Source: Candidatus Latescibacterota bacterium (GTDB taxonomy: Bacteria > Latescibacterota > UBA2968 > GCA-2709665). Taken from it: a stretch of 64,000 bases of DNA. Positions within the stretch are counted from its first letter, which is position 1, and each line of letters begins with the position of its first letter. Positions 32,859 to 64,000 of this stretch are shown piece after piece. The translations under genes were made by a program, and so were the position numbers. The notes under the pieces are model-generated. The model was not told the DNA's origin. It made no database searches and saw only the letters and a program-made list of their open reading frames with translations. The stretch covers positions 2,624,001 through 2,688,000 of the forward strand of contig OZ242180.1 in assembly GCA_965205485.1 (NCBI GenBank). The letters are read 5' to 3'.

Positions 32859-32875
32859 TAAGGAGTCTTCCCGCC

Positions 32876-36540: not shown

Positions 36541-36585
36541 TTAAGGGCCGGGGGCGCTCGCGATCCGACATATGAGAATTCGTCA

Positions 36586-36658: not shown

Positions 36659-36678
36659 ATGTCTTCCTGGGAGTCGCC

Positions 36679-45635: not shown

Positions 45636-45811
45636 TACTCCAGAACAAACTTGCGTTCTTGACATCGCATTTCCGTCACAGATATTCTTAGAGTCCGCCG
45701 CATTGACCCGCTCCGGAGCGCCATAATCCGGAGATTCCCCCGGGCTTTTGCGCGGGATATTCGTATGGCGTGAAGACGGGCAACTCTGAATGTGGAGGGG
45801 GATCTAACGCA

Positions 45812-46537
45812 ATGGATAAGCGGAAAATCTTGATCGTGGAACGAGACCCGGAGGTAACGTCGGAACTTGCAGGATTCCTGAAAGAAGAACCCTATGAAAT
45901 CGTCACCGCGAAAAACGGACCGAAGGGCCTTGAAATACTGAGAAGAGAAAAGATCGACCTGGCCGTGGTCGAGGTATGTGTAGACGACCAGGACGGGATA
46001 ACGCTTCTGGAGGGCGTAAAGGCTGAGGAGATTCAGACGTCGGTGCTGCTGGTTACAAGCCTGGGAACCCTTGAACTGGGAGAGAAAGTGCACAGGCCTT
46101 TCACCATGAGCGTATTCGACAAGCCGATTGATAAGGACGTATTCCTGGCGAACATCAGGAAATATATGCCTCTGCAGGACCTGTGGAAGAGCCGTCTGGA
46201 GTCGTTTCTCGAAGACAACCACAGCAATCCGAACCTGAAATTCGAAGACGTCGTGAGATATTTCAGGTTCTCCAAGTCCTACGGATATGCCTTGTTCAGG
46301 ATGCATCTGGGAGAATCATTCACCAGGAGTCTGCGAAACGTTCGCCTGGCGAAAGCCGAGGAAGCACTCAAGAACACCACGGCATCCATTTCGGAAATCG
46401 CTTATCTCTGCGGATTCGGATCCTTGTCGACGTTCAGCAAGGTGTTTAAGGAGAAATTTGGAAACAGCCCCACCAAATACCGCAGAAATTGGAAACTGGG
46501 ACAAGTCCAGGACGTCCGGACAAACCTTAGGCCTTGA
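45812..46537 (+). CDS. AraC-family regulator with degenerate receiver domain (paralog 2)
   Basis: Collinear paralog of 44937-45635 with DLAVVE, FDKPI and ISEIAYLCGFGSLSTFSKVFK motifs. Confidence 0.88.
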   Translation: MDKRKILIVERDPEVTSELAGFLKEEPYEIVTAKNGPKGLEILRREKIDLAVVEVCVDDQDGITLLEGVKAEEIQTSVLLVTSLGTLELGEKVHRPFTMSVFDKPIDKDVFLANIRKYMPLQDLWKSRLESFLEDNHSNPNLKFEDVVRYFRFSKSYGYALFRMHLGESFTRSLRNVRLAKAEEALKNTTASISEIAYLCGFGSLSTFSKVFKEKFGNSPTKYRRNWKLGQVQDVRTNLRP

Positions 46538-47390: not shown

Positions 47391-48200
47391 ATGCGGACTC
47401 GCGTGATATCATCCATTTGTGCGGCGTTGTTATTTGTCGGAACGGCGTTGGCCGGAGAAATGACCCGCGGACTGACCATTACCGGCGGCCGTAACGCCGG
47501 CGCGACGCTGAAGCTGGAGCGCGTGAACGATCCGGGCGCCGAAAGCGGCGTTCTGAAACTGCACGTGTCGGTGGCGCAAACCGATGAACTGAAGGGTTAC
47601 GGTCTTTCCCTTCAGTTCGATCCCGTGAAATACGAGTTCGTGAACGCCACGGAACTCGAGGGGAACCTGCTGAAATCCGGTTCCGGGCAGGAGACGCTGT
47701 TTCTGTCGTCGAACCGGACGCCGGGGCAGGTGGACGTCGGCGCGGTGAAGATCGACGGCCGGGGCGCCAGCGGCGGCGGGAAGCTCGTCGAGCTTGTGTT
47801 CAGGACGAGCGGAACGCCGTTGTCGTCCGACTTTCAGGTATCCGAAAACGTCCTGGTGAGCATGGATGGGGCCGTGGACAGGCTGCATCACGCTGAAATA
47901 GGCGATCTGAAGCCGCTGCCGGATCGATTCAGTCTGGAGCAGAATATGCCCAACCCGTTCAATCCCTCCACCGCGATCGGCTACCAGTTGCCGGAGGCGG
48001 GAATGGTCCGGCTGGCAATCTACAATCTCATCGGCCAGGAAGTGCGCGTGCTGGTGAACGAGCACAGGAGCGCCGGCTCCTTTACTGCAACGTGGGATGG
48101 GGCGGACGCGCTGGGCAGGCGCGTCGCCAGCGGCATTTATCTGTATCGGATACAGGCGGGCAGTTTCTCGGCCACGAAAAGGATGCTGCTACTGAAATAG
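47391..48200 (+). CDS. Secreted cohesin-like domain + FlgD-Ig/T9SS-like C-terminal domain protein (putative anchoring scaffoldin)
   Basis: Signal peptide; LKGYGLSLQFDPVKYEFV...SGGGKLVELVFR (cohesin-like); FSLEQNMPNPFNPSTAIGYQL...IYNLIGQEVRVLV...WDG...ASGIYLYRI...KRMLLLK. Confidence 0.82.
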   Translation: MRTRVISSICAALLFVGTALAGEMTRGLTITGGRNAGATLKLERVNDPGAESGVLKLHVSVAQTDELKGYGLSLQFDPVKYEFVNATELEGNLLKSGSGQETLFLSSNRTPGQVDVGAVKIDGRGASGGGKLVELVFRTSGTPLSSDFQVSENVLVSMDGAVDRLHHAEIGDLKPLPDRFSLEQNMPNPFNPSTAIGYQLPEAGMVRLAIYNLIGQEVRVLVNEHRSAGSFTATWDGADALGRRVASGIYLYRIQAGSFSATKRMLLLK

Positions 48201-48392
48201 TCCTGACTCCGATTCGACGTTTCTGAACCTGGATGACGCCGTGTACACGACAGCAGTCGGCAATGTCAGTCTATCGGGCCACACAGCCGGCGCTGGCGGC
48301 TGGTTCAAGACGTCGCGACCGTAAGGTTTGGACTCCGGACCCGGGCGTGGCGCCGGAACGAAATCGTCGTCGAAACAAAGGAGTGTTCCTCG

Positions 48393-51300
48393 ATGCTTCC
48401 CAAGCGAAGATTGACATTGATCACCGCTCTCGCGGTTGTCGTCCTTGCCGGGCAGGCTTTCGCCGGCCCCAATGCAAACGCTGTATTGTCGCTTGACCTG
48501 ATTCCCGGTGGAGGCGCCGGCAACCGGACGGATGACGGGATTGCGTCAGGGACAGTCTCCGGACGAGGTACGACAGTCGCAATTGAGATTTTTGCGACCG
48601 GCGTGAGGTCCTCTCTGGTGGGAGTGATTCTGAAATTCGACTTCGACGCATCCATGCTGTCATTTGCAAAAGTCGAAAACAGCGCGTTCCCGCTGTCGCT
48701 CCCTGAAGGCTCCGTGGGCGCCAACCTGGCAGCGAGCAATCCCGTCACATTGGCGTCTTCGGGGTTTCTTGGACGGGCGGAGTTTACGACCGTTGCGGAC
48801 GTGACGGGTCGGGGGTTTTCCATTGGCATCGAGTCGGTAACGCTCGCCGAAAGTCCCACTTCAAGCGATGTGCTCAGGACGAACAGCGAGGTCACGTTCA
48901 ACTCGGCGCCCTCTCCCGACTTCGACGGCGATAACTTCGTTGGATTTACGGATTTTCTGATCTTCGCGAGCGCGTTCGGGTCGCGGCAGGGAGATGGCAG
49001 GTATAATTCCGCAGCGGACTTGAATACCGACGGTTCGGTTGACTTTACGGATTTTCTGATCTTCGCCCAGAGCTTTGGAGGTCCGCCGCCCTCGCCGGGC
49101 GGCGGCGGCAGCGGCAACCCTGACCTCGTCGTGCAGTCCCCTTCCTTAAGCAGCAGTCGCGTTTCACCCGGGGCCCCCTTTACGCTTGGCGCGACGGTCC
49201 GGAACCAGGGCAACGGATCGTCTGCCTCGACCACGTTGCACTACTACCGTTCGACCGACGCGACAGTCAACGCCAGCGATACTCAGGTCGGCACGGACGC
49301 GGTGAGCGGACTTGCGGCAGGTAACGTCAGCGCCGAGTCCATCAATCTGACGGCGCCTTCGGGTCCGGGAACCTACTACTACGGCGCCTGCGTCGACGCG
49401 GTATCCGGAGAGTCGAACACCGGGAACAACTGTTCTCCGGCCGTCGCCCTGACGGTTGCTGCGGCGCCACCCCCCACCCCTGGAGCGTCAAAGCTCTACT
49501 GGACGGACTGGGGCACGGACAAGATCCAGCGAGGCAACCTCGACGGTTCCGGAGTGGAAGACCTCGTCTCCGGCAGCGGGCTGGACGGTCCGGACGGATT
49601 GGCGCTGGATATGGCGGGCGGCAAGATGTACTGGACGGATGCCGGCACCAACAAGATCCAACGGGCCGACCTCAGCGGCGCCAACGTGGAGGACCTGGTC
49701 GGGGGCCTGGGAATACCGTACGGTCTGGCCCTGGACGTCTCCGGCGGCAAGATGTACTGGACAAACCGGCAGACGAACAAGATTCAGCGAGCGGACCTCA
49801 ACGGCGCCAATGTCGAAGACCTGATTACCAGCGGTCTGACGTTTCCGGGCGGATTGGCGCTGGACGTGCCCGGCGGCAAGATGTACTGGACGAATCCGGG
49901 CGCGAACAAGATCCAGCGCTCCAACCTGAATGGTTCGGGGGTCGAAGACCTCGTCACCAGCGGCGTTAGCAGTCCGACAGGGATCGCACTCGATGTTTCC
50001 GGCGGCAAGATGTACTGGACGGACCGGCGTTCGGACAAGATCCAGCGGGCGGACCTCAGCGGAGCCAATGTCGAAGACCTGGTCACCAGCGGTCTGGATC
50101 GACCGAATGGTCTGGCGCTTGACGTGTCCGGTGGAAAAATGTACTGGGCGGATGCCGGCACGAACAAGGTGCAACGCGCAAACCTGAACGGCTCCAACGT
50201 GGAAGACCTGGTTACCGGCGCCAACGGACTGGTAGATCCGTCGGGTGTGGCCGTGGGGATGGCGCTCGGCGGCGGGGGTGGAGGCGGTGCCCCGGCGCCG
50301 GACCTGGTTGTCGTATCGCCTTTCGTCAGCAACAGCAGCCCGGCTCCCGGCGCCTCCTTCAGGCTGGGCGCGTCGGTTCGCAACCAGGGTGATCAAATGT
50401 CCGCGGCGACGACATTGCGCTACTACATGTCGAACGACGCGAACATCTCGACAACCGATACGGAAGTTGGAACGGACGCGGTGACGGGCCTTCCGGCGTC
50501 TGGAGGGAATCCCGGATCGGTTGATCTGGCTTTGTCGATTGACCTTACGGCCCCGTCAAACGCCGGAACCTATTATTACGGGGCCTGTGTGGATGCGGTA
50601 TCGGGTGAGTCGGATACCGGGAACAACTGCTCCGCCGCGGCAAGCATTGTGGTCGCGGCGGTGACGCCGCCCCCCACGGGGACTTCGAAGCTGTACTGGT
50701 CGGACTGGGGCACGGACAAGATCCAGCGCGCGGACCTGGACGGATCCAACGTCGAAGATCTGGTCAGCGGCGCGGGGCTGAACGGCCCGGACGGTTTGGC
50801 CCTTGATATGGCGGGCGGCAAGATGTACTGGACGGACGCGGGTACGGCAAAGATTCAGCGTGCGGACCTGGACGGGTCCAACGTGGAGGATCTCATCACC
50901 AGCGGCCTGAGCGTGCCGTACGGCCTGGCGCTCGATGTGTCTACAGGCAAGATGTACTGGACGAACCGACAGAATGGCAAAATCCAGCGCGCGGACCTCG
51001 ACGGGTCCAATGTCGAAGACCTGCTCACACTTGCCGGCCTGGCGTTTCCGGGTGAAATCGCACTCGACGTGGCCAATGGAAAGATGTACTGGACGAATCC
51101 CGGGTCGGACAAGATCCAGCGTGCGGACCTGGACGGCACCAACCTGGAAGACCTCGTGACCAGCGGTCTGAGCAGCCCCACCGGCCTTGCCCTGGACGTG
51201 TCTGGAGGAAAGATGTACTGGACGGATCGTGGGACGCACAAGATTCAGCGCGCCGGTCTGGACGGCTCAAACGTTGAGGACCTGGTCGCCAGCGGCCTGA

Positions 51301-51704
51301 CGAGCCCCAACGGGCTGGACCTGGACGTGTCCGGAGGAAAGATGTACTGGACGGACGTGGATGCCGACAAGGTTCAGCGTGCTGATCTGGACGGGTCCAA
51401 CGTCGAGGACCTGCTCACCGGCGCCGACGGACTGGTCGATCCCTCGGGACTCGCCGTAGGCGCCGCAGGCGGCGGCAGCGGCGGATCCTATGGCGTCGGT
51501 GACGTGCTCCCGAACTTCCCCACCGGTTTCTTCGTTCCCCGGCTTATTCAGAATGCGAACCTGACCATAAGCGGCGGGCGCGCGGTACTCAGTTTCCAGA
51601 ACGGCGGTCTTATCGAACTCCAGGACGGTACCCGTTATACCTGCGTTTCTGCCGGCGGATGCAGCATCGAGGGCGGACGCGTCACCAGGGGTACCTTCGA
51701 ATAG
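48393..51704 (+). CDS. Secreted protein: cohesin-like domain, dockerin/EF-hand pair, 2x(CARDB + YWTD beta-propeller)
   Basis: LVGVILKFDFDASMLSF; PDFDGDNFVGFTDFLIFA / ADLNTDGSVDFTDFLIFA; 12 KMYWTD-type repeats; two YYYGACVD..SGES.TGNNCS domains. Confidence 0.85.
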   Translation: MLPKRRLTLITALAVVVLAGQAFAGPNANAVLSLDLIPGGGAGNRTDDGIASGTVSGRGTTVAIEIFATGVRSSLVGVILKFDFDASMLSFAKVENSAFPLSLPEGSVGANLAASNPVTLASSGFLGRAEFTTVADVTGRGFSIGIESVTLAESPTSSDVLRTNSEVTFNSAPSPDFDGDNFVGFTDFLIFASAFGSRQGDGRYNSAADLNTDGSVDFTDFLIFAQSFGGPPPSPGGGGSGNPDLVVQSPSLSSSRVSPGAPFTLGATVRNQGNGSSASTTLHYYRSTDATVNASDTQVGTDAVSGLAAGNVSAESINLTAPSGPGTYYYGACVDAVSGESNTGNNCSPAVALTVAAAPPPTPGASKLYWTDWGTDKIQRGNLDGSGVEDLVSGSGLDGPDGLALDMAGGKMYWTDAGTNKIQRADLSGANVEDLVGGLGIPYGLALDVSGGKMYWTNRQTNKIQRADLNGANVEDLITSGLTFPGGLALDVPGGKMYWTNPGANKIQRSNLNGSGVEDLVTSGVSSPTGIALDVSGGKMYWTDRRSDKIQRADLSGANVEDLVTSGLDRPNGLALDVSGGKMYWADAGTNKVQRANLNGSNVEDLVTGANGLVDPSGVAVGMALGGGGGGGAPAPDLVVVSPFVSNSSPAPGASFRLGASVRNQGDQMSAATTLRYYMSNDANISTTDTEVGTDAVTGLPASGGNPGSVDLALSIDLTAPSNAGTYYYGACVDAVSGESDTGNNCSAAASIVVAAVTPPPTGTSKLYWSDWGTDKIQRADLDGSNVEDLVSGAGLNGPDGLALDMAGGKMYWTDAGTAKIQRADLDGSNVEDLITSGLSVPYGLALDVSTGKMYWTNRQNGKIQRADLDGSNVEDLLTLAGLAFPGEIALDVANGKMYWTNPGSDKIQRADLDGTNLEDLVTSGLSSPTGLALDVSGGKMYWTDRGTHKIQRAGLDGSNVEDLVASGLTSPNGLDLDVSGGKMYWTDVDADKVQRADLDGSNVEDLLTGADGLVDPSGLAVGAAGGGSGGSYGVGDVLPNFPTGFFVPRLIQNANLTISGGRAVLSFQNGGLIELQDGTRYTCVSAGGCSIEGGRVTRGTFE

Positions 51705-51717
51705 GGGCAGCTGACTT

Positions 51718-54700
51718 ATGGTCTGGCCAATTACGAATCGTCGATTCGCCTTGTTGTCACTGGTTGTCGTCGTAACGGCATTTGCCCTGCCGGCTTCGGG
51801 TTACGCCCAGGTTCCCGTACCCGCGGTCCAGGAGTCGATCACCGTTTCGACGTCAGGTACGTTGACCGAGGCGACGCTGGACGGCAGAGAGTTTACGGTG
51901 ACGCTCGCGGGGCGCACATTCGAGCGATCCATCTTCGATATCCGGCGCGCGGTGTCGGTCTCGGGCATTGCCGGCGTGAGCGTGGGCACGTTCGGGATTT
52001 CGCGTGCAAGCGATACCAGGCTGACGATAGAACTGGATTTCAACGGCGACTTCGACGAAGAAGGAACACTCACGTTCACGGTTGGTTCGGGGGCCATCGC
52101 GGCATACAACGGCGCCGCGCTCACGAGAGATGTATCTGTCCCGTCGGTGGAAGAAACGGTCGAGGCGTCGACCGCGTCGCCGTTGACCGAGGCGACGCTG
52201 GACGGGAGCGTGGTTACGCTGACACTGGCCGGACGCGCGTACGAGAGTTCCATTTTCGACGTTCGTGACGGCGTGTCGGTCTCGGGTATTGCGGGCGTGA
52301 GCGTGGGCACGTTCGGCGTGCGGCGTGTCAGCGACACGAAAGTGACCGTTGAGCTCGACTTCAGCGGAAACATCGACAGCGACGGCACGCTGACGTTCAC
52401 GGTCGGCTCAGGGGCGATCGCGAACTACAACGGCGCCGCGCTGACCGCTGATTTGACCGTGAGCGCGGGATCGGAAACGGTGACTGCGACGACGGCGTCG
52501 CCGTTAACGGAGGCGACGCTGGACGGGAGCGTGGTGACGTTGACGCTTTCGGGCGGCGCGTACGAGAGATCGATCTTTGACGTACGGGGCGGCGTGTCGG
52601 TCTCGGGAATCGCGGGCGTGAGCGTGGGCACGTTCGGTATCCAGCGCAAGAGTGATACGGTGGTAACGGTCGAGCTCAGCTTTAACGGAGACATCGACAG
52701 CGACGGTACGCTGACGTTCACGGTTGGCTCAGGGGCGATCGCGAACTACAACGGGTCCGCGCTTACCGACCAGATGTCTGTGGTTGCACTGGAGGAAGCC
52801 GTCGTTGCAACAGCGGCGCGGTCCTTGACCGAGGCGACATTGAACGGGAGCGTCGTGACACTCACGCTTTCTGGTCGTTCATACGCGAGTTCCATCTTCG
52901 ACGTTCGGCGCGGTGTGTCGGTATCGGGGATTACGGGCGTGAGCGTGGGTACGTTCGGCGTCCAGCGGGTGAGCGATACAAAGGTAACCGTAGAGCTGTC
53001 GTTTAGCGGCAATATCGACAGCGACGGTACGTTAACGTTTACCGTGGGCGCCGATGCGATCAAGGACTACAATGGCGCCGCGCTCACCGCGACGCTGCCG
53101 GTCAGCTCCGGAATGGAATCGGTGACGGCGTCGACGGCGTCGCCGTTAACTGAGGCAACGCTCAACGGGAGTGTCGTGACGCTGACGCTGATGGACGGCG
53201 TCTATGCCAGCTCTATCTTCGACATTAGAGGCGCGGTGACGGTGTCGGGAATTACGGGCGTTAGCGTGGGCACCTTCGGCGTGCAACGGGCGAGCGACAC
53301 CAAGTTGACCGTCACGCTGACCTTTAATGGCGACTTTGATGCCGACGGCACGCTGACGTTCACGGTGGGCGCAGGGGCCATCGCCAGTTACAGCGGCGTC
53401 GCGCTCACCGCGACGCTGCCGGTGAGCGCGGGGATGGAATCGGTGACAGCGTCGACAACGTCTCCCTTGACCGAGGCAACACTGGACGGGAGCGTGGTGA
53501 CACTCACGCTTACGGGCGCCGCGTACACGAGGTCCGCCCTCGACATTCGGGATGCCGTGTCGGTGTCGGGAATTGCGGGGGCGAGTATCGAGAGGTTCGG
53601 AATCAGACGCGTCAGCGACACGGTAACGACGGCCGAGCTCGAATTCAACGGCAACATGGACGCCGACGGCACGTTGACGTTCACGGTGGGCGCGGACGCG
53701 ATTGCGAATTACAACGGTGATCCGCTTACCGCGACGTTGCCGGTTACCGCGGACACAGGTGGCGGGACGAATCAGGTACCCACGTTCAGCGAGGGCGCCA
53801 GCGCAACACGCAGCTTCGCAGAGAATACGCCCGCCGGACAGAACATAGGCAGCCCGGTGACGGCGACGGATAACGACGGCGGTACGCCGTCTTACAGCCT
53901 GGAGGGTACGGATGCCGCGAGTTTCGTCCTCGTCTCAACCAGCGGCCAGCTGCAGACCAAAACGGGTGTCATCTACGACTACGAGGTGAAGAACCGCTAC
54001 GAGGTGACGGTGCGGGTGTCCGACGGCCAGGGCGGCAGCGCCACCATTGACGTGACCATCAACCTGACCGACGTGAGCGAAACGCAGGCGAATCCGGAGC
54101 TCTATTGGACGGACTGGGGTACGCAGAAGATCCAGCGTGCGGACCTGGACGGCTCGAACGTGGAAGACGTGGTCACCAGCGGTCTGAATACCCCGGTCGG
54201 GTTGGCAGTGGACCTGTCTGCCGGGAAGATGTACTGGACCGATTCGGGCACGCAGAAGATCCGGCGTGCGGACCTGGACGGCTCCAACGTTGAAGACCTG
54301 ATCACCAGCGGTTTGGACACGCCCGTCTGGCTGGCGCTGGACGTGGCTGGCGGCAAGATGTACTGGACCGACTGGGGTACGGACAGGATCCGGCGCGCGG
54401 ATCTGGACGGCTCCAACGTTGAGAACCTGGTGGTCGCCGGAGGTTTGAACAGCCCGGCCGGCCTGGTTCTGGACGTGTCCGGCGGCAAGATGTACTGGAC
54501 GGACTCGTCGGCTGACAAGATCCAGCGTGCGGACCTGGACGGCTCGAACGTGGAAGACCTGATCACCAGCGGTTTCGGGAGTCCCAGCGGTCTGGCGCTG
54601 GACGTGGTACACGGCAAGATGTACTTCACGGATCGCGAAACAGGCGTGATTCAGCGAGCCGACCTTGACGGCTCCAATATCGAAGACGTTATCACCCGCG

Positions 54701-55872
54701 GTCTGGCCAAACCAGTCGAGGTGGACCTGGACCTGGCCGCGGGCAAGATGTACTGGACGGACCTGGACAACGACAGGATCCAGCGCGCCGATCTGGACGG
54801 TTCAAACGTGGAAGACCTTGTGACCGGATCCGATGGCCTGGACAATCCATTCGGTCTGGCCCTCGCGGTTGCCCCCGCTCCCACGCCGCCGGCGCCGCAG
54901 GGCCCGTGCGCGACCGGAAGCGCTGTACCCAACCCTGCCGCAAACCCGTGGCTGGTCTCCGACTGCAATGTCCTGCTGGAGGCGAAGGATCCACTGAGAG
55001 GGACAGCGACGCTGAACTGGTCGGAGAATACCGCGATCGCGACGTGGGACGGCGTCACAATCAGCGGTACGCCGCAGCGCGTAACGAACTTGAGACTCTG
55101 GAACAAGAGCCTGAACGGAACGATACCGGCCGGGTTGAGCCGCCTGACGGGCCTGAACGCGTTGCAATTCGGCTACAACCAGTTGACAGGGACCATCCCC
55201 GCGGAACTGGGTACGATGACCGGCCTGACCCATCTGGTTCTTCCGAGCAACCGTTTGACCGGTACCATCCCCGCGGAGCTGAAAAACCTGACCAACCTTC
55301 GAAAGTTGGCCCTTCAGATCAATGGGTTGACCGGTAGTATCCCGTCATGGGTAGGTACCCTGCGCCGTTTGCAGATACTGAACCTCTACGAGAACCAGTT
55401 GACCGGCGCAATCCCGACTGAGCTGGGCAACCTGACCGAACTGTGGCAGCTGCTCATATTCGGTAACCGGTTTACCGGTACGATCCCCGCGGAACTGGGA
55501 AATCTGAGTCTGCTGCAGGAAGTGCGCCTGGACGACAACAGGCTGACCGGGTCCATTCCCTCGACATTAAGCGGACTGGCCAGATTGGGCCTGCTGTATC
55601 TCTCGGGGAACTCGCTGACAGGTTGCGTCCCGCCATCATTGAGGGACGTTTCCCAAAATGATCTGGACAAGCTCAATTTGCCGGACTGCACTCAGACCCA
55701 GGGACAGAAGACGGCGGACTTCAACGGCGACGGCATCGTGAACTTCGCGGACTTCTTCGACTTCGTGGACGCCTTCGGCACCACGGACGCGAAATACGAC
55801 CTCGACGACAACGGCATCGTGAACTTCGCCGACTTCTTCGAGTTTGTAGATGCGTTCGGTACGTCAGGATAG
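51718..55872 (+). CDS. Secreted adhesin-like protein: 6x107-aa repeats, cadherin, YWTD propeller, plant-type LRRs, C-terminal dockerin/EF-hand pair
   Basis: Signal peptide; cadherin motifs ENTPAG, ATDND and YDYEVK; 6 YWTD-type repeats; NxLTGxIP LRRs; ADFNGDGIVNFADFF / DLDDNGIVNFADFF. Confidence 0.88.
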   Translation: MVWPITNRRFALLSLVVVVTAFALPASGYAQVPVPAVQESITVSTSGTLTEATLDGREFTVTLAGRTFERSIFDIRRAVSVSGIAGVSVGTFGISRASDTRLTIELDFNGDFDEEGTLTFTVGSGAIAAYNGAALTRDVSVPSVEETVEASTASPLTEATLDGSVVTLTLAGRAYESSIFDVRDGVSVSGIAGVSVGTFGVRRVSDTKVTVELDFSGNIDSDGTLTFTVGSGAIANYNGAALTADLTVSAGSETVTATTASPLTEATLDGSVVTLTLSGGAYERSIFDVRGGVSVSGIAGVSVGTFGIQRKSDTVVTVELSFNGDIDSDGTLTFTVGSGAIANYNGSALTDQMSVVALEEAVVATAARSLTEATLNGSVVTLTLSGRSYASSIFDVRRGVSVSGITGVSVGTFGVQRVSDTKVTVELSFSGNIDSDGTLTFTVGADAIKDYNGAALTATLPVSSGMESVTASTASPLTEATLNGSVVTLTLMDGVYASSIFDIRGAVTVSGITGVSVGTFGVQRASDTKLTVTLTFNGDFDADGTLTFTVGAGAIASYSGVALTATLPVSAGMESVTASTTSPLTEATLDGSVVTLTLTGAAYTRSALDIRDAVSVSGIAGASIERFGIRRVSDTVTTAELEFNGNMDADGTLTFTVGADAIANYNGDPLTATLPVTADTGGGTNQVPTFSEGASATRSFAENTPAGQNIGSPVTATDNDGGTPSYSLEGTDAASFVLVSTSGQLQTKTGVIYDYEVKNRYEVTVRVSDGQGGSATIDVTINLTDVSETQANPELYWTDWGTQKIQRADLDGSNVEDVVTSGLNTPVGLAVDLSAGKMYWTDSGTQKIRRADLDGSNVEDLITSGLDTPVWLALDVAGGKMYWTDWGTDRIRRADLDGSNVENLVVAGGLNSPAGLVLDVSGGKMYWTDSSADKIQRADLDGSNVEDLITSGFGSPSGLALDVVHGKMYFTDRETGVIQRADLDGSNIEDVITRGLAKPVEVDLDLAAGKMYWTDLDNDRIQRADLDGSNVEDLVTGSDGLDNPFGLALAVAPAPTPPAPQGPCATGSAVPNPAANPWLVSDCNVLLEAKDPLRGTATLNWSENTAIATWDGVTISGTPQRVTNLRLWNKSLNGTIPAGLSRLTGLNALQFGYNQLTGTIPAELGTMTGLTHLVLPSNRLTGTIPAELKNLTNLRKLALQINGLTGSIPSWVGTLRRLQILNLYENQLTGAIPTELGNLTELWQLLIFGNRFTGTIPAELGNLSLLQEVRLDDNRLTGSIPSTLSGLARLGLLYLSGNSLTGCVPPSLRDVSQNDLDKLNLPDCTQTQGQKTADFNGDGIVNFADFFDFVDAFGTTDAKYDLDDNGIVNFADFFEFVDAFGTSG
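51832..53757 (+). repeat. Six tandem 321-bp coding repeats
   Basis: The LTEATL codon starts at 51862, 52183, 52504, 52825, 53146 and 53467, an exact 321-bp period. Confidence 0.92.
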
Positions 55873-55972
55873 GCCCACGCGTAACGTATTCATGTGCGTG
55901 TGAACGGGCTAAGCGGCACTTTTGACCCGACACGTGTAGAATCTGAACCCATTCAAGAAGGAGGAATTGAAC

Positions 55973-56410
55973 ATGAAACCGTATCTCGTATCGGCAATCG
56001 CCGTACTGACCCTGTCGGGCTGCATGGTGGCGCAACACCACCGATCGTCTGTGCGGGATGACGAGGGCGACCGGATGACCGTGGGAGTGGTTCAGAAGGA
56101 AATCAGAGTGGGCATGAGCGGCGCCGAAGTCGCGCAGGCTCTCGGATCGCCGAACGTCGTCTCGACCGACGAAGAGCGGCGGGAAGTGTGGATATATGAC
56201 AAGATTTCCACGGAAAAGGCATACTCGTCCAGCAAGGCCGGTATTCCATCTCTCATTCTTGTGGGATTGGTCGATTTTGCATTCAGGGGCGCCAAGTTGG
56301 CCGGAGACTCCGGAGCCGAATCGACGTCGCAGAGAACGCTCACCGTAATCATAAAATTCGACGAGGACAAGAAGGTGAGGGACTTCGCCTATCACGCGTC
56401 GCGGTTCTGA
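55973..56410 (+). CDS. SmpA/OmlA (BamE)-like lipoprotein
   Basis: Lipobox LSGC; IRVGMSGAEVAQALGSP..., EVWIY and LTVIIKFDEDKKV motifs; RBS aggagg. Confidence 0.75.
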   Translation: MKPYLVSAIAVLTLSGCMVAQHHRSSVRDDEGDRMTVGVVQKEIRVGMSGAEVAQALGSPNVVSTDEERREVWIYDKISTEKAYSSSKAGIPSLILVGLVDFAFRGAKLAGDSGAESTSQRTLTVIIKFDEDKKVRDFAYHASRF

Positions 56411-56471
56411 GACTTGTGCGCCAGGAATGGGATCAGGCAGGTGACGCAGTCGATCCGAGGGAGGTCCGAGG

Positions 56472-57083
56472 ATGAACCAATCAAGGATCCATCCGGTAAT
56501 GCCGCTTGTCATGGCGGCTCTGGTGTTGACAGGCTGTGCCAGGGGCGGCCTGCCCGCGCATGTCCTGAGACTGACGCCGGAGTCACTGCAAAACCGGGCT
56601 TTACAGACAAGAAAATACGAAGGGATTTCGGAAGCCGATCTCTTGTCCGCGTCGACCGGCGTGATTCAGGACCTGGGTTTCATCATCGATGAGAGCGAGA
56701 CCAGTCTCGGACTCATCGTTGGCTCAAAAGACAGAGATGCGGATCCTGACGCGGCACAGCGCGCGGAGCAGGTGCTGGTTGGCGCGACGACGTTCCTGCT
56801 TGCTGTGATGGCTGCGGCTGCTGCGAAAGACGGAGATGTCTTTGACCAGATCTTTCACGTACCCGCCGTCGACGACTATCAGAAGCTGTGGGCGTCCATC
56901 GTAATTCGTCGGTCGTCGGAGGATAACGACAGCATACACTACGTAAGAGTGACGTTTCAGCGGATTGTCTGGAATACAGATGACGAAGTGGCGCGGCTTC
57001 AAAGCCTGGATGAACCGGAGATGTACCAGAGGTTCTTCGATCTACTCTCAAAGTCAATTCTGTTGGAAGGGCAGGAAATATGA
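56472..57083 (+). CDS. Uncharacterised lipoprotein (paralog family, divergent member)
   Basis: Lipobox LTGC; RALQTRKY, IQDLGFIIDE and YQRFFDLLSKSILLE motifs. Confidence 0.75.
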   Translation: MNQSRIHPVMPLVMAALVLTGCARGGLPAHVLRLTPESLQNRALQTRKYEGISEADLLSASTGVIQDLGFIIDESETSLGLIVGSKDRDADPDAAQRAEQVLVGATTFLLAVMAAAAAKDGDVFDQIFHVPAVDDYQKLWASIVIRRSSEDNDSIHYVRVTFQRIVWNTDDEVARLQSLDEPEMYQRFFDLLSKSILLEGQEI

Positions 57084-57529
57084 CAGCAACCGGGAAATTG
57101 GCGGTCGCGATTGGCGCATTGTTCGTTTATTCCGCGTGCGCGTCATCGAAAGAGCATCTGTTGAAGATGGACGAAAGCCAGGTCGAGATGCGAAGCATGC
57201 AGACCCGTGCATTCGACACGACCGATAAAGAAGGCATGCTCAGAACTGTGATTTCCACACTTCAGGACCTGGGCTATATCGTGAATGAGGCGAATGAAGT
57301 GATCGGAACGGTCAGCGCCCGAACAACGGACATAAAGTACAAGCTGTTTTCCAAGAAGAAACTTCCGCTCCTGATCACCGTAACGGTCCGCCCGAGGGGC
57401 GAAACCCAGTTGTTGGTGCGAGCGAACGCGCAGTTCGACGATAAAGCGGTAAGAAACCCGCTCGTATATCAGAATTTCTTCAACGTTTTGGAAAAATCAA
57501 TCTACCTGTCCGCTCACGAAGTTGACTGA
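57080..57529 (+). CDS. Uncharacterised lipoprotein (paralog family)
   Basis: YSAC lipobox-like site; RSMQTRAFDTTD, LQDLGY, TVTVRPRGE and YQNFF..LEKS motifs. Confidence 0.8.
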   Translation: MTATGKLAVAIGALFVYSACASSKEHLLKMDESQVEMRSMQTRAFDTTDKEGMLRTVISTLQDLGYIVNEANEVIGTVSARTTDIKYKLFSKKKLPLLITVTVRPRGETQLLVRANAQFDDKAVRNPLVYQNFFNVLEKSIYLSAHEVD

Positions 57530-57597
57530 GTGGATGCTATTTCTGCCCTAACCTCGTCGCTTCCATACAAGCGGTGATTCACCAGGGAAACAGCAAT

Positions 57598-58023
57598 ATG
57601 GGATTTTCCAGGATAGCGTTCACCGCAATTGTCACCGCGATTTCAGTCGGTTTGTCCGGATGCGCAACTCCCAAAAGGCAATTGATGAAGATGGACACCA
57701 GTCAAATCAACCTGCGGAGCATGCAGACCCGCGCATTTGACACCACGGACGAAAAAAAGGCGCTCAGGAGCGTTATATCCACACTTCAGGATTTCGACTT
57801 TCTCATAGACGAAGCCAATAAGGTGCTCGGCGTTATCAGCGCGACAAGAAGGAACGATTGGGCGCAAATGACGGTAACCGTGCGTCCAAGGGGCGAAACC
57901 CAGGTCGAGGTGCGCGCCAATCTGGAATACAATCGCAAGGGAGTCGAAGATCCTTCAATTTACCGGAAGTTTTTCAGGTTCCTGGAAAAATCGATGTTTC
58001 TGACCGCTCACGAGGTCGATTGA
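57598..58023 (+). CDS. Uncharacterised lipoprotein (paralog family)
   Basis: Lipobox LSGC; RSMQTRAFDTTD, TVTVRPRGE and LEKSMFLTAHEVD motifs. Confidence 0.8.
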   Translation: MGFSRIAFTAIVTAISVGLSGCATPKRQLMKMDTSQINLRSMQTRAFDTTDEKKALRSVISTLQDFDFLIDEANKVLGVISATRRNDWAQMTVTVRPRGETQVEVRANLEYNRKGVEDPSIYRKFFRFLEKSMFLTAHEVD

Positions 58024-58079
58024 ACGGCCCTGAACGTCATCCATAACGATATTGCCGTAAATACTGTGGGTACAGAATT

Positions 58080-58511
58080 ATGAAGAATCCCAGCATCATC
58101 GCAACGCTGATTCTCACGTTCTTCGGGCTCTCAGGCGGCGTCTGCATGTCGAAAGAAAAAAAACCATTGAAGTTGGAGTTGGCTGAAAGTCCACTGAAAA
58201 TCCGAAGCATGCAGACCCGTGCGTTCGATACCACGGATGAGAACAGGACGTTGAGAGCCATCATCGCCACACTTCAGGATTTCGGTTTTGTCATTAAAAA
58301 GGCGGACGAGGCGCTCGGGACGATCACAGCCAGAAGAATCGACAAATATCCAATTCGATTAACGGTAACCGTACGTAGCAGGCGCACAACGCAGGTGCTG
58401 GTGCGTATGAATGCGTACTACCGCGGTCCGGTCAGGGAACCCGTTATATACCAGAATTTCTTCACGTCCCTGGCGAATTCCATGTTTCTCACCGCAAACC
58501 CGATCCAGTAA
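58080..58511 (+). CDS. Uncharacterised exported protein (paralog family, degenerate lipobox)
   Basis: LSGGVC; RSMQTRAFDTTD, LQDFGF and YQNFF..LANSMFLTA motifs. Confidence 0.78.
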   Translation: MKNPSIIATLILTFFGLSGGVCMSKEKKPLKLELAESPLKIRSMQTRAFDTTDENRTLRAIIATLQDFGFVIKKADEALGTITARRIDKYPIRLTVTVRSRRTTQVLVRMNAYYRGPVREPVIYQNFFTSLANSMFLTANPIQ

Positions 58512-58730
58512 ACGACCTTCGCGCATTTTTCTCCACAGCATAGTTCCATTTGCGTCCCCACAGGCTTGAGCTGATGTTCGCAAAAGTACTGCCGAATCTG
58601 TCGCATTTTGCGACAGTTGCCCCGCGTGCCGCGCCCCGGGATACCGGATGATTGCTCACCTGGTTCCCGCCTACCAATCCCGGGAACACCACCGACGCGA
58701 GCGAAAACTGGACTTATCCGGGAGGTACGA

Positions 58731-61607
58731 ATGTCCGGCAAAATCCCCATCGTTGCTGCCGTCTTTCCCGCCTGCCTGGCTATCCTGTTGTTGTCGTCGT
58801 TCACATACGCCTCTTCTCCCGAATTCGATTGGACGCATTCCTGCCGGGCGCCGGATCATGAGCTGCTTGGCCATGAGTTGGCGTTCGGTCCGGCCTTCAA
58901 GCGGGTGGCGGTGTCGGACTCCGGCCAGACACGCCAGTTGCGCCTCGTTTATTTCCTGCCGAACGACAGGACGTTCAACCCGGACGTGGTCGATTCGATG
59001 AAGGCAAGGATTTCCCGGATCCGGACCTTCTTCCTCAACCAGATGCAGTCGAACGGCAAAGGCGCCATGACCTTTGGGTACGAGACCGACGCGCAGGGCG
59101 ATCCGATCGTACACCGTTTCGACGCGCCGAACTCCGATGCCAGCTATCTCTCCTCGTATCGCATGGTCGGCATTGGAAACGTATTCAGGGACCTGGGATC
59201 GACGTTCGACACGAGTCAGAACATCTTCTTCATCGTCGTTGACCACAGCACGTACAACAACCTGGGTTGGGGCAACGTGGCGGGCTTTGGCGCCCGGTGG
59301 GCGGATAACCGCGGTTACGCGCTGCTGCCCGCCAGCTTCATCGTTGAAACGGCGGCCCACGAACTCGGCCATGCCTTCGGCTTGCAGCACGAATTCAACG
59401 ACGGCGCGAACATCATGTCGTATGGCCCGGGATGGAACCGGCTGGCGGCGTGCAGCGCCGGCCTGCTGTCTGTACATCCCTATTTCAATCCGGCAATCCC
59501 GATCAAGGGATATCAGGGTGGATACGACCTGGGGGCGTTCAACTCGCCGGGCGTAGAGCTGATCTCACCGCTGAGATATCCCGCCGGAGCAACGAGCTTC
59601 TCCGTTCAGTTCAGGGTTACGGCTACCGGCAGCAGAGGACTTCACCAGGTTGTGTTCTTCCTCAAGACGAAATCACCCCACGCGGCCGCGGGATCGCAGG
59701 AAGTGAAATCCTGCCGGGTTTTCACCGGTCAGAATCAGGCTGTCGCCACGTTCGACTACGACGGCATCGTTCCCTCTGAAGGCGTTTCGAGTCTCTCCGC
59801 CTCGCCCGCGCAGTACGTGTCGGTCCTCGCGGTCGATACAGAGGGAAATGCGAATACCGGGCCACTGCACGATACGCATTTCGTCTTTGCGGAAGCGTCG
59901 GAACACCACCTCGCCACGTTATTCAGATTCACGGGGAAATATTCACCGGAGATCTATGGCGCGAAGTTTTCGACCGATGGATCGGTCCTCGCCGTGAATT
60001 CGTCGGCGGGGATCCAACTATGGAATATGACGTCGCGAGTCCATACCGCGTCATTGAGAGGGGGCAGTTCTACAGCGGCGTTTTCGCCCGACGGCGCCAC
60101 GCTCGCTTCCGGGTCCACCCGGACCGACGAGGCCAATATCAAGCTGTGGAACGTTGCGGACCAGACCCTCATCGCCACGCTGCCGGGGCATACGGGGGGC
60201 CCCACGGGGGTCCATTCGCTTGCGTTCTCGCCCAGCGGCGACACCCTTGCTTCAGGCTCGGGCGACAGGACGATCAAGCTCTGGGACGTTTCCAGCCGGA
60301 CGCTGATCACCACCCTCACGGGGCACACAAGCCACGTTTTCGCTATAGCATATTCGCCCGATGGCACGCTCGCTTCCGGTTCAAGGGACGGGACGGTCAA
60401 GCTGTGGAATACGGCGACACGTACCAATATCGCAACGCTTCAGGGCAACACCGGCCGCGTACTGGACGTGGCGTTTTCGCCCGACGGGACCACGCTCGCT
60501 TCGAGTACTGACGGACCCATGGTGCTGTGGGACGTAACGGCACGGGATACGATCGCAACCCTTCAAGGGCACGGAAGGCCGTCGTTTTCCTCCGACGGAT
60601 CGATGCTCGCCACCGGCGCGGGACTGGGGGAGGTCCTGCTGTGGGACGTGGCGACGACGGAGAATGTCGCCAGGCTCGGGCATCCGGACCACCTGGAGGA
60701 TGGAAGTGGCTTCGGGATCAATGGGGTGTTTTCTCCCGACGGATCCCTGCTTGCTTCGGTCGGGCTGAACGGGATCGAACTGTGGGACGCGTCGGAGTGG
60801 ACGGGGGCATCTCCGCCGGCTTCCACGCCGGCCAACCCGGACAGCGTCGCCCTGGTTGCGCTGTACAATGCCACGAGCGGCGCGAACTGGCGAAGCAGGA
60901 CGAACTGGCTGAGCGACAAGCCCCTTGACGAATGGAAAGGTGTCAGTACCACAGGAACGGGCCGTGTGAATAACCTCAGTCTTGAATTGAACCGGTTGAG
61001 CGGTCCCATCCCCGCGGGAATTGGCAACCTCAGCTTCCTCGTGTCGCTGTATCTCTATTCCAACCAGTTAAGCGGAGCGCTTCCGCCCGAAGTGGGCAAT
61101 CTATCAAACCTGGTTCATCTGGAAATCTACCGTAATCGTTTGAGCGGTCCGATTCCCTCCGAATTGGGCAACCTGTCCAGGCTGACCAAACTGAATCTGC
61201 ACAGCAATCAGTTGACCGGCTCCATACCGGCGGAGCTCGGCAACCTGACAAGCTTGACGACGCTGAGTCTCGCCAACAACCGGTTGACAGGCTCTATACC
61301 CGCGGAACTCGATAGCCTCACCAACCTGACGCACCTGTATCTCTCAGGCAACCCGTTGAAAGGCTGCATCCCGGCGGGCTTGCGTGACGTGGCGACCAAC
61401 GACCTGGACCAGGTCGGTCTGCCCTATTGCGGTCAGGGGCAGACACAAACGTCGACCGATTTCAATGGCGACGGCCGGACCGATTTCGTCGATTTCTTCC
61501 TCTTTGCCGACGCATACGGTAGCACGAACGCCAAATTCGACCTGGATGGCAACGGGACCGTGGATTTCGCGGACTTCTTCAAGTTCGTCGATGCGTTTGG
61601 ATCGTAG
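58731..61607 (+). CDS. Secreted zinc-metallopeptidase domain + WD40 repeats + LRRs + C-terminal dockerin/EF-hand pair
   Basis: HELGHAFGLQH (HExxHxxGxxH) with a downstream Met-turn (NIMSY); AFSPDG.TLASGS.D.TIKLWD repeats; NxLSGPIP LRRs; TDFNGDGRTDFVDFF / DLDGNGTVDFADFF; RBS ggagg. Confidence 0.88.
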   Translation: MSGKIPIVAAVFPACLAILLLSSFTYASSPEFDWTHSCRAPDHELLGHELAFGPAFKRVAVSDSGQTRQLRLVYFLPNDRTFNPDVVDSMKARISRIRTFFLNQMQSNGKGAMTFGYETDAQGDPIVHRFDAPNSDASYLSSYRMVGIGNVFRDLGSTFDTSQNIFFIVVDHSTYNNLGWGNVAGFGARWADNRGYALLPASFIVETAAHELGHAFGLQHEFNDGANIMSYGPGWNRLAACSAGLLSVHPYFNPAIPIKGYQGGYDLGAFNSPGVELISPLRYPAGATSFSVQFRVTATGSRGLHQVVFFLKTKSPHAAAGSQEVKSCRVFTGQNQAVATFDYDGIVPSEGVSSLSASPAQYVSVLAVDTEGNANTGPLHDTHFVFAEASEHHLATLFRFTGKYSPEIYGAKFSTDGSVLAVNSSAGIQLWNMTSRVHTASLRGGSSTAAFSPDGATLASGSTRTDEANIKLWNVADQTLIATLPGHTGGPTGVHSLAFSPSGDTLASGSGDRTIKLWDVSSRTLITTLTGHTSHVFAIAYSPDGTLASGSRDGTVKLWNTATRTNIATLQGNTGRVLDVAFSPDGTTLASSTDGPMVLWDVTARDTIATLQGHGRPSFSSDGSMLATGAGLGEVLLWDVATTENVARLGHPDHLEDGSGFGINGVFSPDGSLLASVGLNGIELWDASEWTGASPPASTPANPDSVALVALYNATSGANWRSRTNWLSDKPLDEWKGVSTTGTGRVNNLSLELNRLSGPIPAGIGNLSFLVSLYLYSNQLSGALPPEVGNLSNLVHLEIYRNRLSGPIPSELGNLSRLTKLNLHSNQLTGSIPAELGNLTSLTTLSLANNRLTGSIPAELDSLTNLTHLYLSGNPLKGCIPAGLRDVATNDLDQVGLPYCGQGQTQTSTDFNGDGRTDFVDFFLFADAYGSTNAKFDLDGNGTVDFADFFKFVDAFGS

Positions 61608-61696
61608 TCGCCAGCAACGATTGGGAAATCAAGTGTTTTGCAGATGGAGAATAATCCCGACCTTATTTCGATTTGTACCTGGGACGAGGAGTATTT

Positions 61697-64000
61697 ATGG
61701 AGTCGCCAACGGTGAATCTCAACTCCGCGTGCCTGTTCCATGTTGGCTGGTCTTCTGCGCCGTCCTTCTGTCTGTAGCGCCCGATGCAGTTGAGGCCGCG
61801 GTTTCCTACGACAGCGACGGCGACGGCCTGATCGAGATCAGCACCCTGGCGCAGTTGAACGCCATACGTTGGGACCTGGACGGCGACGGTGCGGTGGACA
61901 GTGGAACGAATAGAGTTGCCTATTCCACGGCCTTCCCGGATGCCGCGGCGAGCATGGGTTGCGCCGCCACCTGCATCGGCTACGAACTCGTTGCCAGCCT
62001 GACCTTTGACGAGAACGGCGACGGACGCGTTACGGCGGCCGACGGCGGTTACTGGAACGGCGGTGCGGGATGGCTTCCCATTGAAAACTTCGCAGCCACG
62101 TTTGAGGGCAACGGACATACGATTGCCCGCCTGTACATCAGCCGTTCCACTGGCGGTATCGGTTTGTTCGGCGGGGTGAGCGCCGGTGGGCAGGTGCGGA
62201 ATGTTGCGGTTCGAGACGTGGCCGTGACCGGCTCGGGCGACTGGAACTCTGTCGGAGGCCTGGTGGGCATTGTCGCCAGTTACGCAACCAAGGTGACGGG
62301 CTCCGGGCGAGACAGAATGTCATCTGGTGGGTCGCCAGTTACGCAACCGGTAAGGTGACGGGCTCCGGCGCGACGAGACAGAATGTCGGAGGTCTGGTAG
62401 GGTACAACAGCTCAGAAAGTAGCATCGTCGCCAGTTACGCAACGGGCGTGGTGACGGGGTCGAGCGACTGGGGCGGTGTGGGAGGTCTGGTGGGGTACAA
62501 CTCAGCAGGTAGCATTGTCGCCAGTTACGCGACCGGTGCAGTGACGGGTTCCGACGCGACGAGACAGAGCGTCGGAGGTCTGGTAGGGTACAACGGCTCA
62601 GAAGGCGGCATTGTCGCCAGTTACGCAACCGGCGCCGTGACGGGGTCGAGCGACTGGGGCGGTGTGGGAGGTCTGGTGGGGTACAACAGCTCAGCGGGTA
62701 GCATCGTCGCCAGTTACGCAACCGGTGCGGTGATGGGCTCCGGCGCGACGAGACAGAGCGTCGGAGGCCTGGTAGGGTACAACGGCTCAGAAGGTAGCAT
62801 CAGCGGTTGCTACTGGAATACCGAGACTTCCGGGCAGGCGTCGAGCGCTGGTGGGGAAGGCAAGACGACAGTGGAACTGCAATCGCCCACCGGATACACG
62901 GGCATCTTCGCCAGCTGGAACGTGGATCTGGACAACGCTGACGGGGACGACGATGCGACCACCGGCAGCGACGATCCCTGGGACTTCGGGACTGCGCAGC
63001 AGTATCCTGCACTGCGTGCGGACTTCGACGGCGACGGCGCGGCCACGTGGCAGGAGTTCGGGCGGCAGCGACCGGACGCTTCCCCGACAACTGGCGAAAC
63101 GACTGGATCGACGGCAGTTTCCTACGACACCGACGGTGACGGCCTGATCGAGATCGACAATCTGGCTCAGTTGAACGCCATTCGCTGGGACCTGGACGGC
63201 GACGGCGCCGTGGACAACGCCGCAAACGAGTCCTCCTATGCGAGCGCCTTCCCCGATGCCGCGGCGGGAATGGGTTGCGCCGCCACCTGCATCGGCTACG
63301 AACTCGTTGCCGGCCTTAGCTTTGACGAGAACGGCGACGGACGCGTTACGGCGGCCGACGGCGGCTACTGGAACGGCGGCGCGGGCTGGGCGCCTATCGG
63401 AGGTTTTTCCGCCACGCTCGAAGGTAATCTCCATGTCATAGCTCACCTGTACATTGACCGCGCTGCGGAACGCAATGTGGGTCTGTTCAGCCAAATCAGC
63501 GACGGCGCCAAGATACGCAACGTAGGCCTGAACGAGATCACAGTGACTGGTGGCCGCAACAGCGGCGGGCTGGTCGGGCAAAACTCGGGCGCCATCAGTT
63601 CCAGTTACGCCACCGGCTCGGTGACTGGTGGCCGCGACACTGGCGGGCTGGTCGGGCTTAACTGGAGTGGCGCCATCATCGCCAGCTATGCCATCGTCTC
63701 CTTAGAGTCCAGTGGCCCATCCGGCGGCGCGGGCGGGCTGGTCGGGCTTAACTGGAGGGGCGCCATTGTCGCCAGCTACGCCGCCGGCTCGGTAAGGTCC
63801 AGTGGCTCATCCAGCAGCGCCGGCGGTTTGGTCGGGGACAACTGGACGGGTACCAGCATCATCATCGCCAGCTACGCCGCCGGTTCGGTAAGGGCTAGTG
63901 GCTTATCCAGCAGCGCGGGCGGGCTGGTCGGGCAAAACTCGGGCGCTATCAGCTCCAGCTACTGGGACACCAAGACCTCCGGCCGGTCTACAAGCGCCGG
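61697..64000 (+). pseudogene. GLUG-repeat surface protein, frameshifted in this sequence, 3' end runs off the window
   Basis: The SD-preceded ATG 61697 is out of frame with the signal peptide. One frame ends at 62358; the GGLVG repeats resume in another frame from 62331 and stay open to 64000. The YDxDGDGLIEI...LNAIRWDLDGDG module occurs at 61801 and 63117. Confidence 0.65.

Follow-up and report, generated by a model that had tools for sequence, protein, structure and literature searches.

The question raised by this locus is how sponge symbionts bring many eukaryote-like proteins to the cell surface. The window is a stretch of 64,000 nucleotides from a Candidatus Latescibacterota bacterium (assembly GCA_965205485.1, contig OZ242180.1, positions 2,624,001 to 2,688,000, forward strand), and it holds four open reading frames (ORFs) on the plus strand, 47391, 48393, 51718 and 58731, named here after their first nucleotide (A to D in Table 1). 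An earlier sequence-only reading took these co-oriented genes for a hierarchical surface complex, with 47391 as the anchor, 48393 as the adaptor and the other two as cargo, joined by cohesin domains and the calcium-binding dockerin modules that dock on them. The gene arrangement is as that reading described; the four genes, instead, are not a complex of their own, being one island of a genome-wide cohesin-dockerin system with 94 dockerin ORFs. In this system, 47391 is probably secreted and fixed at the surface, where it would bind repeat proteins and proteases without a sorting domain via their calcium-loaded dockerins.

The probable cohesin anchor and the dockerin-tagged repertoire

Regarding the anchor, the structure model of 47391 had a predicted local distance difference test (pLDDT) value of 83.9, and in a wide search with VIA-align the first 16 rows for residues 36-176, here called CohA, were all cohesins with Z between 10.7 and 13.5; the best match was 6kgc_A (Z 13.5, root-mean-square deviation, rmsd, 3.2, 132 residues aligned). 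Residues 178-269 matched the C-terminal domain (CTD) of PorU (6za2; Z 10.5, rmsd 2.6, 89 aligned), both FlgD_ig (36.3, cut-off 27) and TIGR04183 (30.4, cut-off 23) were found in the tail, and a hydrophobic N-terminus, as of a signal peptide, is visible in the sequence. 47391 is thus predicted to join a cohesin fold to a T9SS (type IX secretion system) sorting domain of type A, in agreement with the sequence-only reading on both modules. As for the sequence of CohA, cohesins were eight of the nine best matches of its profile in the PDB, with weak E values (0.02-0.5), and two CohA paralogues at 32-33% identity passed the Cohesin family PF00963 (37 and 42). The residues of the predicted binding face, K68, G69, G71, L103, G117, V154 and V156, were at least 90% conserved in 78 sequences, this 8-3-6-5 face being placed from the DSSP strand order, without coordinates. 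Five short proteins of the cohesin-CTD type are encoded in the genome, besides two long ones of the dockerin-cohesin-CTD type. Close homologues of 47391 carry at NCBI the label Ca. Latescibacteria, at 87%, or that of Gemmatimonadota, at up to 90%; a search that covered 1/64 of the collection gave a full-length match at 62% in a Ca. Latescibacterota record, the other matches being mostly CTD-only.

Dockerins were recognized as a duplicated calcium loop (D or N at positions 1, 3 and 5, D at 12) plus a helix, and such pairs occur at 48918-49079, 55717-55860 and 61458-61601. A strict pattern for such pairs matched 41 of them in the genome and not a single one after the genome had been reversed; the profile built from the pairs of this genome served for the census that the sequence-only reading had proposed, and it found the 94 dockerin ORFs, divided into 83 of a generic type and 11 of a variant, FF, defined by F14, D18 and a loop spacing of 27. 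The dockerin of 48393 is of the generic type, with a spacing of 33; it has the duplicated loop, two helices after the loops in the structure model, a Dockerin_1 score of 29.2 (cut-off 22.9), and an ungapped match to the type II dockerin of B. cellulosolvens (2y3n_B, E 2.5e-8). According to the passages of PMC8063739 on the corresponding pair, CohScaA11-DocCel48, the dockerin cannot do without Met17 and Phe27, and its Met21 is a contact residue for the cohesin; these residues map to motif positions 10, 20 and 14, respectively. Among the generic long-linker halves, position 10 is F in 101/116 and position 20 is F or Y in all 116, and both residues are likewise kept in 22/22 FF halves. The generic dockerin shares with the B. 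cellulosolvens one the ungapped alignment, the spacing of 33 and the hot spots 10 and 20, and, as far as PMC8063739 describes it, also the lack of an X-module and the internal symmetry; it differs by Phe in place of Met at position 10, while the FF linker is 6 residues shorter. The B. cellulosolvens system itself differs in its cellulase cargo, multi-cohesin scaffoldin and Gram-positive cell.

The FF dockerins of 51718 and 58731 were detected by the genome-built profile at E ~1e-14 to 1e-17, and NF041540 matched 48/48 FF members (best E 7.7e-8); PF00404 was not among the 13 Pfam families found in 51718. In the short-linker pairs of the island loci, F14 and D18 are present in both halves of 56/56, with a synonymous value (pS) of 0.64 against a nonsynonymous value (pN) of 0.06-0.11; these figures are biased in favor of the variant, as the loci were mostly selected by their FF match and the pattern fixes some positions, the latter making pN too low. 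On these sequence comparisons, FF appears to be an island-specific dockerin variant under purifying selection. In another genome (L026 in G030, 2133-2675), a short ORF consists of the first CohA half joined to an FF dockerin and looks like a recombination remnant.

As for what the dockerins are attached to, a Pfam census of all 94 ORFs (five best rows per ORF) counted WD40 repeats in 21, leucine-rich repeats (LRR) in 14 and YWTD repeats in 4, with 38 distinct ORFs carrying one of these; four were similar to carbohydrate-active enzymes (CAZymes; one glycoside hydrolase of family 5, GH5, and three heparinase II/III), and 20 had no family at 1e-5. The metzincin motif occurred in 10/94 dockerin ORFs compared to 1/3,881 other long ORFs. 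This agrees with the cargo first proposed from the sequence, namely LRR, YWTD, WD40, cadherin and metalloprotease modules rather than CAZymes, and both 51718 and 58731 were found, as proposed, to end in a dockerin pair with no sorting domain. A cellulosome was rejected since the cargo is not dominated by plant-wall glycoside hydrolases; the same census rejects a reading confined to the four genes. A multi-cohesin primary scaffoldin with a carbohydrate-binding module (CBM) was rejected too: each ORF had at most two cohesin-like domains by the CohA, CohB (see below) and PF00963 profiles, which other cohesin families could escape.

Dockerin and sorting domain are nearly exclusive. They stand together in 2/94 ORFs, both of which also have a cohesin; among the repeat proteins found by motif, the dockerin is present in 4/4 with YWTD, 16/16 with WD40 and 10/12 with LRR, and none is CTD-only. 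The two tags also swap on the same body, as seen in two Cache-domain proteins, one with a dockerin and the other with a CTD, which share 42% identity over 335 aa. In a secreted Cache-domain-like family (G000 497169-507769 and 1763711-1765366; L048 2832-4157), six members have a T9SS tail, and in one member a dockerin takes its place.

Export and anchoring

Regarding the secretion machinery, SprA, nine PorV-family genes and BamA were above cut-offs, and the only PorU-like gene of the genome is 3.3 kb upstream of 47391; its ORF opens at 38148, with the likely ATG at 38283, and the protein contains GHGS and LSCL motifs, which we take to be the His/Cys dyad of C25 peptidases. CohA, dockerin loops, SprA and the single PorU-like gene were each present in 41/41 genomes. 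Searches of this genome, which is 97% complete, did not find GspD, GspE or secretin; secretin was found in 0/14 other genomes of the genus and in 7/41 genomes overall, none of this genus. Some GldK-like genes were present with scores under the cut-off, and at G000 1051337-1054125 two of them adjoin a PorV-family gene, which makes this a candidate for a divergent T9SS core locus.

On this basis, all partners would be exported by Sec, and 47391 would then cross the outer membrane by the T9SS with PorU-type processing of its CTD. Positions 10, 14 and 20 of the dockerin would dock hydrophobically on the conserved cohesin face, as in the type II pair of B. cellulosolvens, with one cargo per anchor; CohB-dockerin adaptors such as 48393 would lengthen some of these into short chains. 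Given a cargo that has signal peptides and no CTD, in a genome where no secretin was found, the simplest route is that it binds CohA in the periplasm and passes through SprA with it. That the cohesin-CTD proteins anchor the cargo is likely, and that they also export it across the outer membrane is something they may do; the alternatives to co-export are a dockerin read directly as a signal, release in vesicles, or a periplasmic location.

The anchoring model, which we hold with moderate confidence, is supported by the fold and conserved face of CohA, the ungapped match to 2y3n_B with its hot-spot positions kept, the near exclusion of dockerin and CTD and their swap on related bodies, the dockerin on nearly all repeat proteins, the constant presence of CohA, dockerin loops, SprA and a PorU-like gene, and the finding of PorV-family and BamA genes where GspD, GspE and secretin were not found. 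Several observations, together with those on CohB given below, weigh against it. The CohA domain of 47391 scored 14.5 bits against PF00963, under the cut-off of 24.1; seven single-cohesin anchors for 94 dockerin ORFs imply a small complex and no scaffold; and the signal peptides, assigned to 76/94 dockerin ORFs compared to 137/600 control ORFs, come from a crude rule. The FF dockerins scored under the cut-off of NF041540 (27.2 versus 29 for the one of 58731), and the best 60 PDB sequence matches of the FF dockerins were calmodulin-type EF-hands, with no dockerins among them. As for the machinery, the PorU-like protein was below both NCBIfam cut-offs (NF033707, 313.8 versus 420; NF052324, 227.6 versus 450), and GldM was not found in the genome, in a search where the control was silent as well. 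In P. gingivalis, PorU attaches its substrates covalently to anionic lipopolysaccharide (A-LPS). LpxC was not found in this genome at 97% completeness; therefore, the P. gingivalis anchoring step cannot be transferred as it is, and the acceptor may not be based on lipid A.

The same EF-hand matches leave room for a different function of the module, i.e., a calcium-binding tag for export or membrane binding, read for instance by a PorV-family protein, with no cohesin as ligand and with the cohesin folds being unrelated surface domains. The nine PorV-family paralogues would suit such a tag, as would the nature of the module, which is Phe-rich, amphipathic and found at either protein end, and a related NCBIfam family bears the name "GC-type dockerin domain-anchored protein"; yet cohesin and dockerin occur together in 41/41 genomes, share one operon-like run and are also joined within polypeptides, and the module keeps the hot spots known from a type II pair whose structure is solved, so that we regard this explanation as quite improbable.

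The candidate adaptor domain and the proposed binding specificities

The N-terminal domain of 48393, CohB, is the less certain of the two cohesin-like domains, and the claim made for it from the sequence stands in part. Pfam finds the dockerin and 12 YWTD repeats, as proposed, together with two CARDB domains, and the cohesin-like nature of the domain is a resemblance of fold: its best matches were cohesins of C. perfringens (Z 11.6-11.7, rmsd 2.7-2.9, 120-123 aligned), which rank first with Ig-like sandwiches close behind, as adhesin, pilin and integrin immunoglobulin (Ig) domains follow at Z 10.1-10.4, 1.3-1.5 Z below. In these searches with the 48393 model the larger domain filled the lists, and the dockerin part was barely probed. 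With Foldseek, the first 13 rows for CohB were cohesin entries. PF00963 gave no match to CohB, the CohB profile had no match at E ≤ 5 among PDB sequences, and a comparison of the CohA and CohB profiles gave no significant link (probability 14.7 and 0.4).

It is possible that CohB is an Ig-like stalk, an adhesin domain or an X-module that stabilizes the dockerin next to it, and that all dockerins, FF included, bind CohA in one tier. The nearness of the Ig domains fits this explanation, and so do the predicted face positions of CohB, which vary among sequences; the dockerin directly abuts CohB in 119/120 long homologues, a count biased by a query that included the dockerin, and the invariant K68 of CohA could meet D18 of FF. 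Against it, CohB occurs in tandems, with a CTD in place of the dockerin, and in minimal proteins of 230-232 aa made of CohB and dockerin only; moreover, CohB occurs beside Pfam cohesins, and its profile matches the Pfam-cohesin stretch of two proteins (P0271 and P0273) at 22-23 bits. With the cohesin entries heading the Foldseek list as a further point for a socket, we consider the stalk explanation rather unlikely, and the minimal CohB-dockerin proteins and the pairing of CohB with Pfam cohesins count in favor of the anchoring model. Proteins with two CohB domains end in a dockerin or in a CTD (P0165, L222); at L222 (G024, 3934-8000), a dockerin-CohA-CTD gene is followed by a CohB-CohB-CTD gene, namely a CohB anchored directly without a dockerin.

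Regarding the two binding specificities that had been suggested for the adaptor and the cargo dockerins, the hierarchy is supported in part only. There are two dockerin types, and FF is the distinct, apparently selected one, confined to anchor-adaptor islands; the dockerin of 48393, instead, is not specific for adaptors, being of the generic type of 83/94 dockerin ORFs, which is C-terminal, and thus cargo-like, in 45/83. A strict code is in our view unlikely; under it, CohA would accept no dockerin but the generic one of 48393, and CohB none but those of the FF type on 51718, 58731 and the other island cargo. The conservation of F14 and D18 under a low pN speaks for it, position 14 being the one that contacts the cohesin in 2y3n (Met21, in the passages of PMC8063739 cited above), and FF was seen on 0/240 CohB-bearing homologues. 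All 11 FF ORFs are within 20 kb of a CohB gene, compared to 14/83 of the other dockerin ORFs, but they are equally close to CohA genes (11/11 within 30 kb). Likewise, CohB occurs in 16/16 FF-positive genomes and FF in none of the five CohB-negative ones, but 20/36 CohB-positive genomes have no FF motif, among them G026 with its 16 CohB matches, and co-inheritance as one island explains the co-occurrence, the more so as kin are not independent. No clade specific for FF was found in either cohesin family; the label FF would have to change 15 times along the CohB tree and nine times along the CohA tree, both of them built on few columns and with many open forks; also, no face residue that tracks FF was found in CohA or CohB. 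The partner preferred by the FF dockerins may be CohB, CohA or both.

If the anchoring model is joined to this hierarchy, the dockerin would, in this order of Latescibacterota-like bacteria associated with sponges, have replaced the type IX signal on nearly the whole eukaryote-like repertoire, the cohesin-CTD proteins would be reusable T9SS carriers and anchors acting via SprA, and mobile islands would add CohB and an orthogonal FF tier; this joint proposal is tentative, and we would not expect all of its parts to hold. If the route of display by the anchoring model holds, most of the WD40, LRR and YWTD proteins in an order are displayed under the control of a single socket family, and the piggy-back export of CTD-less cargo would be a new use of the T9SS, on which a literature search gave nothing pertinent. 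Those who design scaffolds or display proteins on Gram-negative cells would also gain a Phe-rich cohesin-dockerin pair for their toolkit, and perhaps two that are orthogonal.

Known systems and gene neighborhood

The system works like those proposed for the planctosome, Ca. Stygibacter and Chlorobium, and it is not a cellulosome. In Ca. Stygibacter (Cloacimonadota), PMC8542988 describes, in the passages concerned, a predicted non-cellulolytic cohesin-dockerin complex with an anchor of the T9SS-type CTD and a cargo that includes S8 and C25 peptidases; it differs in having one multi-cohesin scaffoldin of 3,755 aa with CBMs and few enzymes, while here there are several single-cohesin anchors of 269-371 aa, eukaryote-like repeats dominate among the ~94 tagged ORFs, the cohesins fall into two families, and the dockerin has a variant. 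The planctosome of Nemodlikiaceae has, according to the passages of PMC6461901, a predicted hierarchy of anchor, adaptor and cargo with an adaptor that bears both dockerin and cohesin, and zinc peptidases as cargo; its anchor is a lamin-tail/P-domain protein of 2,210 aa that is not a T9SS substrate, its proposed role is peptide degradation, and those passages do not describe a repertoire of repeat proteins. An anchor with a lamin tail and P-domain was looked for in 47391 alone of the whole genome, and this protein has only the cohesin and TIGR04183. Chlorobium chlorochromatii, a Gram-negative symbiont, has a predicted cohesin-dockerin tether as well (Cag_2037/Cag_2038), which, as far as the preprint bioRxiv 10.64898/2026.03.19.712371 covers it, consists of one pair, is exported by a type I secretion system (T1SS) and serves a symbiosis between bacteria.

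As for single sockets, the cohesins of C. perfringens glycoside hydrolases (2vo8, 2w1n, 2jh2) resemble CohB most in fold, and they also rank among those most similar to CohA. Single-cohesin anchors such as SdbA of C. thermocellum (2bm3) belong with them. Both are similar to the present case in their non-cellulosomal or single-cohesin use, and differ by Gram-positive anchoring and carbohydrate-active cargo.

Sponge-symbiont Poribacteria (PMC3909097) and Latescibacterota (PMC12993501) are described, in the passages concerned, as having WD40, LRR, LDL-receptor (YWTD), cadherin and NHL domains, and TIGR04183 tails occur in Poribacteria (PMC3909097); unlike in those accounts, the repeats here carry a dockerin in place of their own CTD. 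The words dockerin and cohesin do not occur in the main texts of PMC4454575, PMC12993501 and PMC3909097, whose supplements may list such domains, and a search of the literature for Latescibacter*, sponge symbionts and Poribacteria with dockerin, cohesin, T9SS or PorU gave no account of the system in this lineage, subscription papers and supplements aside. The present analysis adds the linkage to PorU, the missing secretin, the tag swaps, the mapping of the hot spots and the test of the FF code.

Regarding its distribution, a CohA match was present in each of the 52 further genomes searched within the order, and a more distant one in 96/153 of the phylum. By the listed coordinates, the A-B pair lies at most 10 kb downstream of the PorU-like gene in 11/15 genomes of the genus; in the remaining ones it is on other contigs in two and was not seen in two. 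The order A, B, FF cargo occurs in 12/21 loci examined, and it comes with lipoproteins and a further FF gene in eight. A second island (L012, G000 508501-528400) has the same A-B-FF order, with CohA 89% and CohB 81% identical, and a PorV-family gene (530844-531674) is ~3 kb upstream of it. Contigs of four sponge-metagenome runs from four studies align to the A-B stretch with a likeness of at least 85%, with 47933-48791 covered by a single piece, and indicate that close relatives of this bacterium live in sponges.

Table 1. Features in and around the island, in coordinates of the window
Feature	Position	Strand	Evidence
PorU-like C25 sortase with CARDB and FlgD-Ig/CTD	38283..44051	+	Peptidase_C25, 233 bits
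Two receiver plus AraC-type regulators, between sortase gene and island	44889..46537	+	
Anchor candidate A, 269 aa: signal peptide, CohA, T9SS type A sorting domain	47391..48200	+	
CohA domain, residues 36-176	47496..47918	+	cohesin fold match
T9SS type A C-terminal sorting domain of 47391	47922..48197	+	TIGR04183, PorU CTD fold
Adaptor candidate B, 1103 aa: signal peptide, CohB, generic dockerin, CARDB, YWTD propeller, CARDB, YWTD propeller	48393..51704	+	
CohB cohesin-like beta-sandwich, residues 25-171	48465..48905	+	
Generic, type II-like dockerin of 48393, loop spacing 33	48909..49079	+	PF00404
Cargo C, 1384 aa: six 107-aa tandem repeats, cadherin, YWTD propeller, LRR, C-terminal FF dockerin	51718..55872	+	
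FF dockerin of 51718, spacing 27, F14 and D18 in both halves	55714..55866	+	
Five small exported proteins (one BamE-like, four paralogues without Pfam match)	55967..58511	+	
Cargo D, 958 aa: metzincin motif, WD40 propeller, LRR, C-terminal FF dockerin	58731..61607	+	
Metzincin motif HExxHxxGxxH of 58731	59358-59390	+	
FF dockerin of 58731	61455..61604	+	
Next cargo gene: GLUG, LRR, FF dockerin; runs past the window end	62106..64000	+	

The island extends ~18 kb beyond the window; its continuation brings the further FF proteins to five in all, together with a tandem CohB-CohB-dockerin protein and a WD40 protein that has a generic dockerin. This continuation, the PorU-like gene, the 107-aa repeats of 51718 and the five small genes were absent from the sequence-only reading. 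The GLUG/LRR/FF cargo gene is split over two overlapping frames near 62300 (61384-62358 and 62106-64000), with the signal peptide in the first and the dockerin in the second; a frameshift and an assembly error are both candidates for this break, and 62098-62325 is outside the contigs of the four metagenome runs. The six repeats of 51718 (51838-53757, at its N-terminus) are beta-rich, have an exact period and gave no family match, and a paralogue at G000 520968-523697 has four more of them.

The five small exported proteins are probably passengers. Three of them have a clear lipobox, and the BamE-like one scored 23.3 against a BamE cut-off of 23.2; the Atlas neighbours, at 0.92-0.93, are unnamed clusters, with DUF3568 (13% of members, score 0.88) as a lead only. 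The cluster is kept in place in eight island loci; as a required part of the system it was rejected, because it is missing in the FF-positive G011, G013 (where a remnant is left) and G016, and present in FF-negative genomes. Composition gave no signal of a horizontal origin of the island, the guanine-plus-cytosine (GC) content being 0.596 versus 0.599. The scan for promoters and terminators was uninformative, with two promoter-like sites compared to 3.8 expected and eight terminator-like sites compared to 14 expected.

Finally, a polysaccharide cluster with glycosyltransferases, a Wzx-type flippase, a WecA-like protein and an aminotransferase (25613-38277) precedes the PorU-like gene, and a single run at 15990-23973 encodes acetate kinase, a class II aldolase, an acylating aldehyde dehydrogenase and a PduL-like phosphate acyltransferase, a set that we take to resemble sugar-catabolic microcompartment loci.

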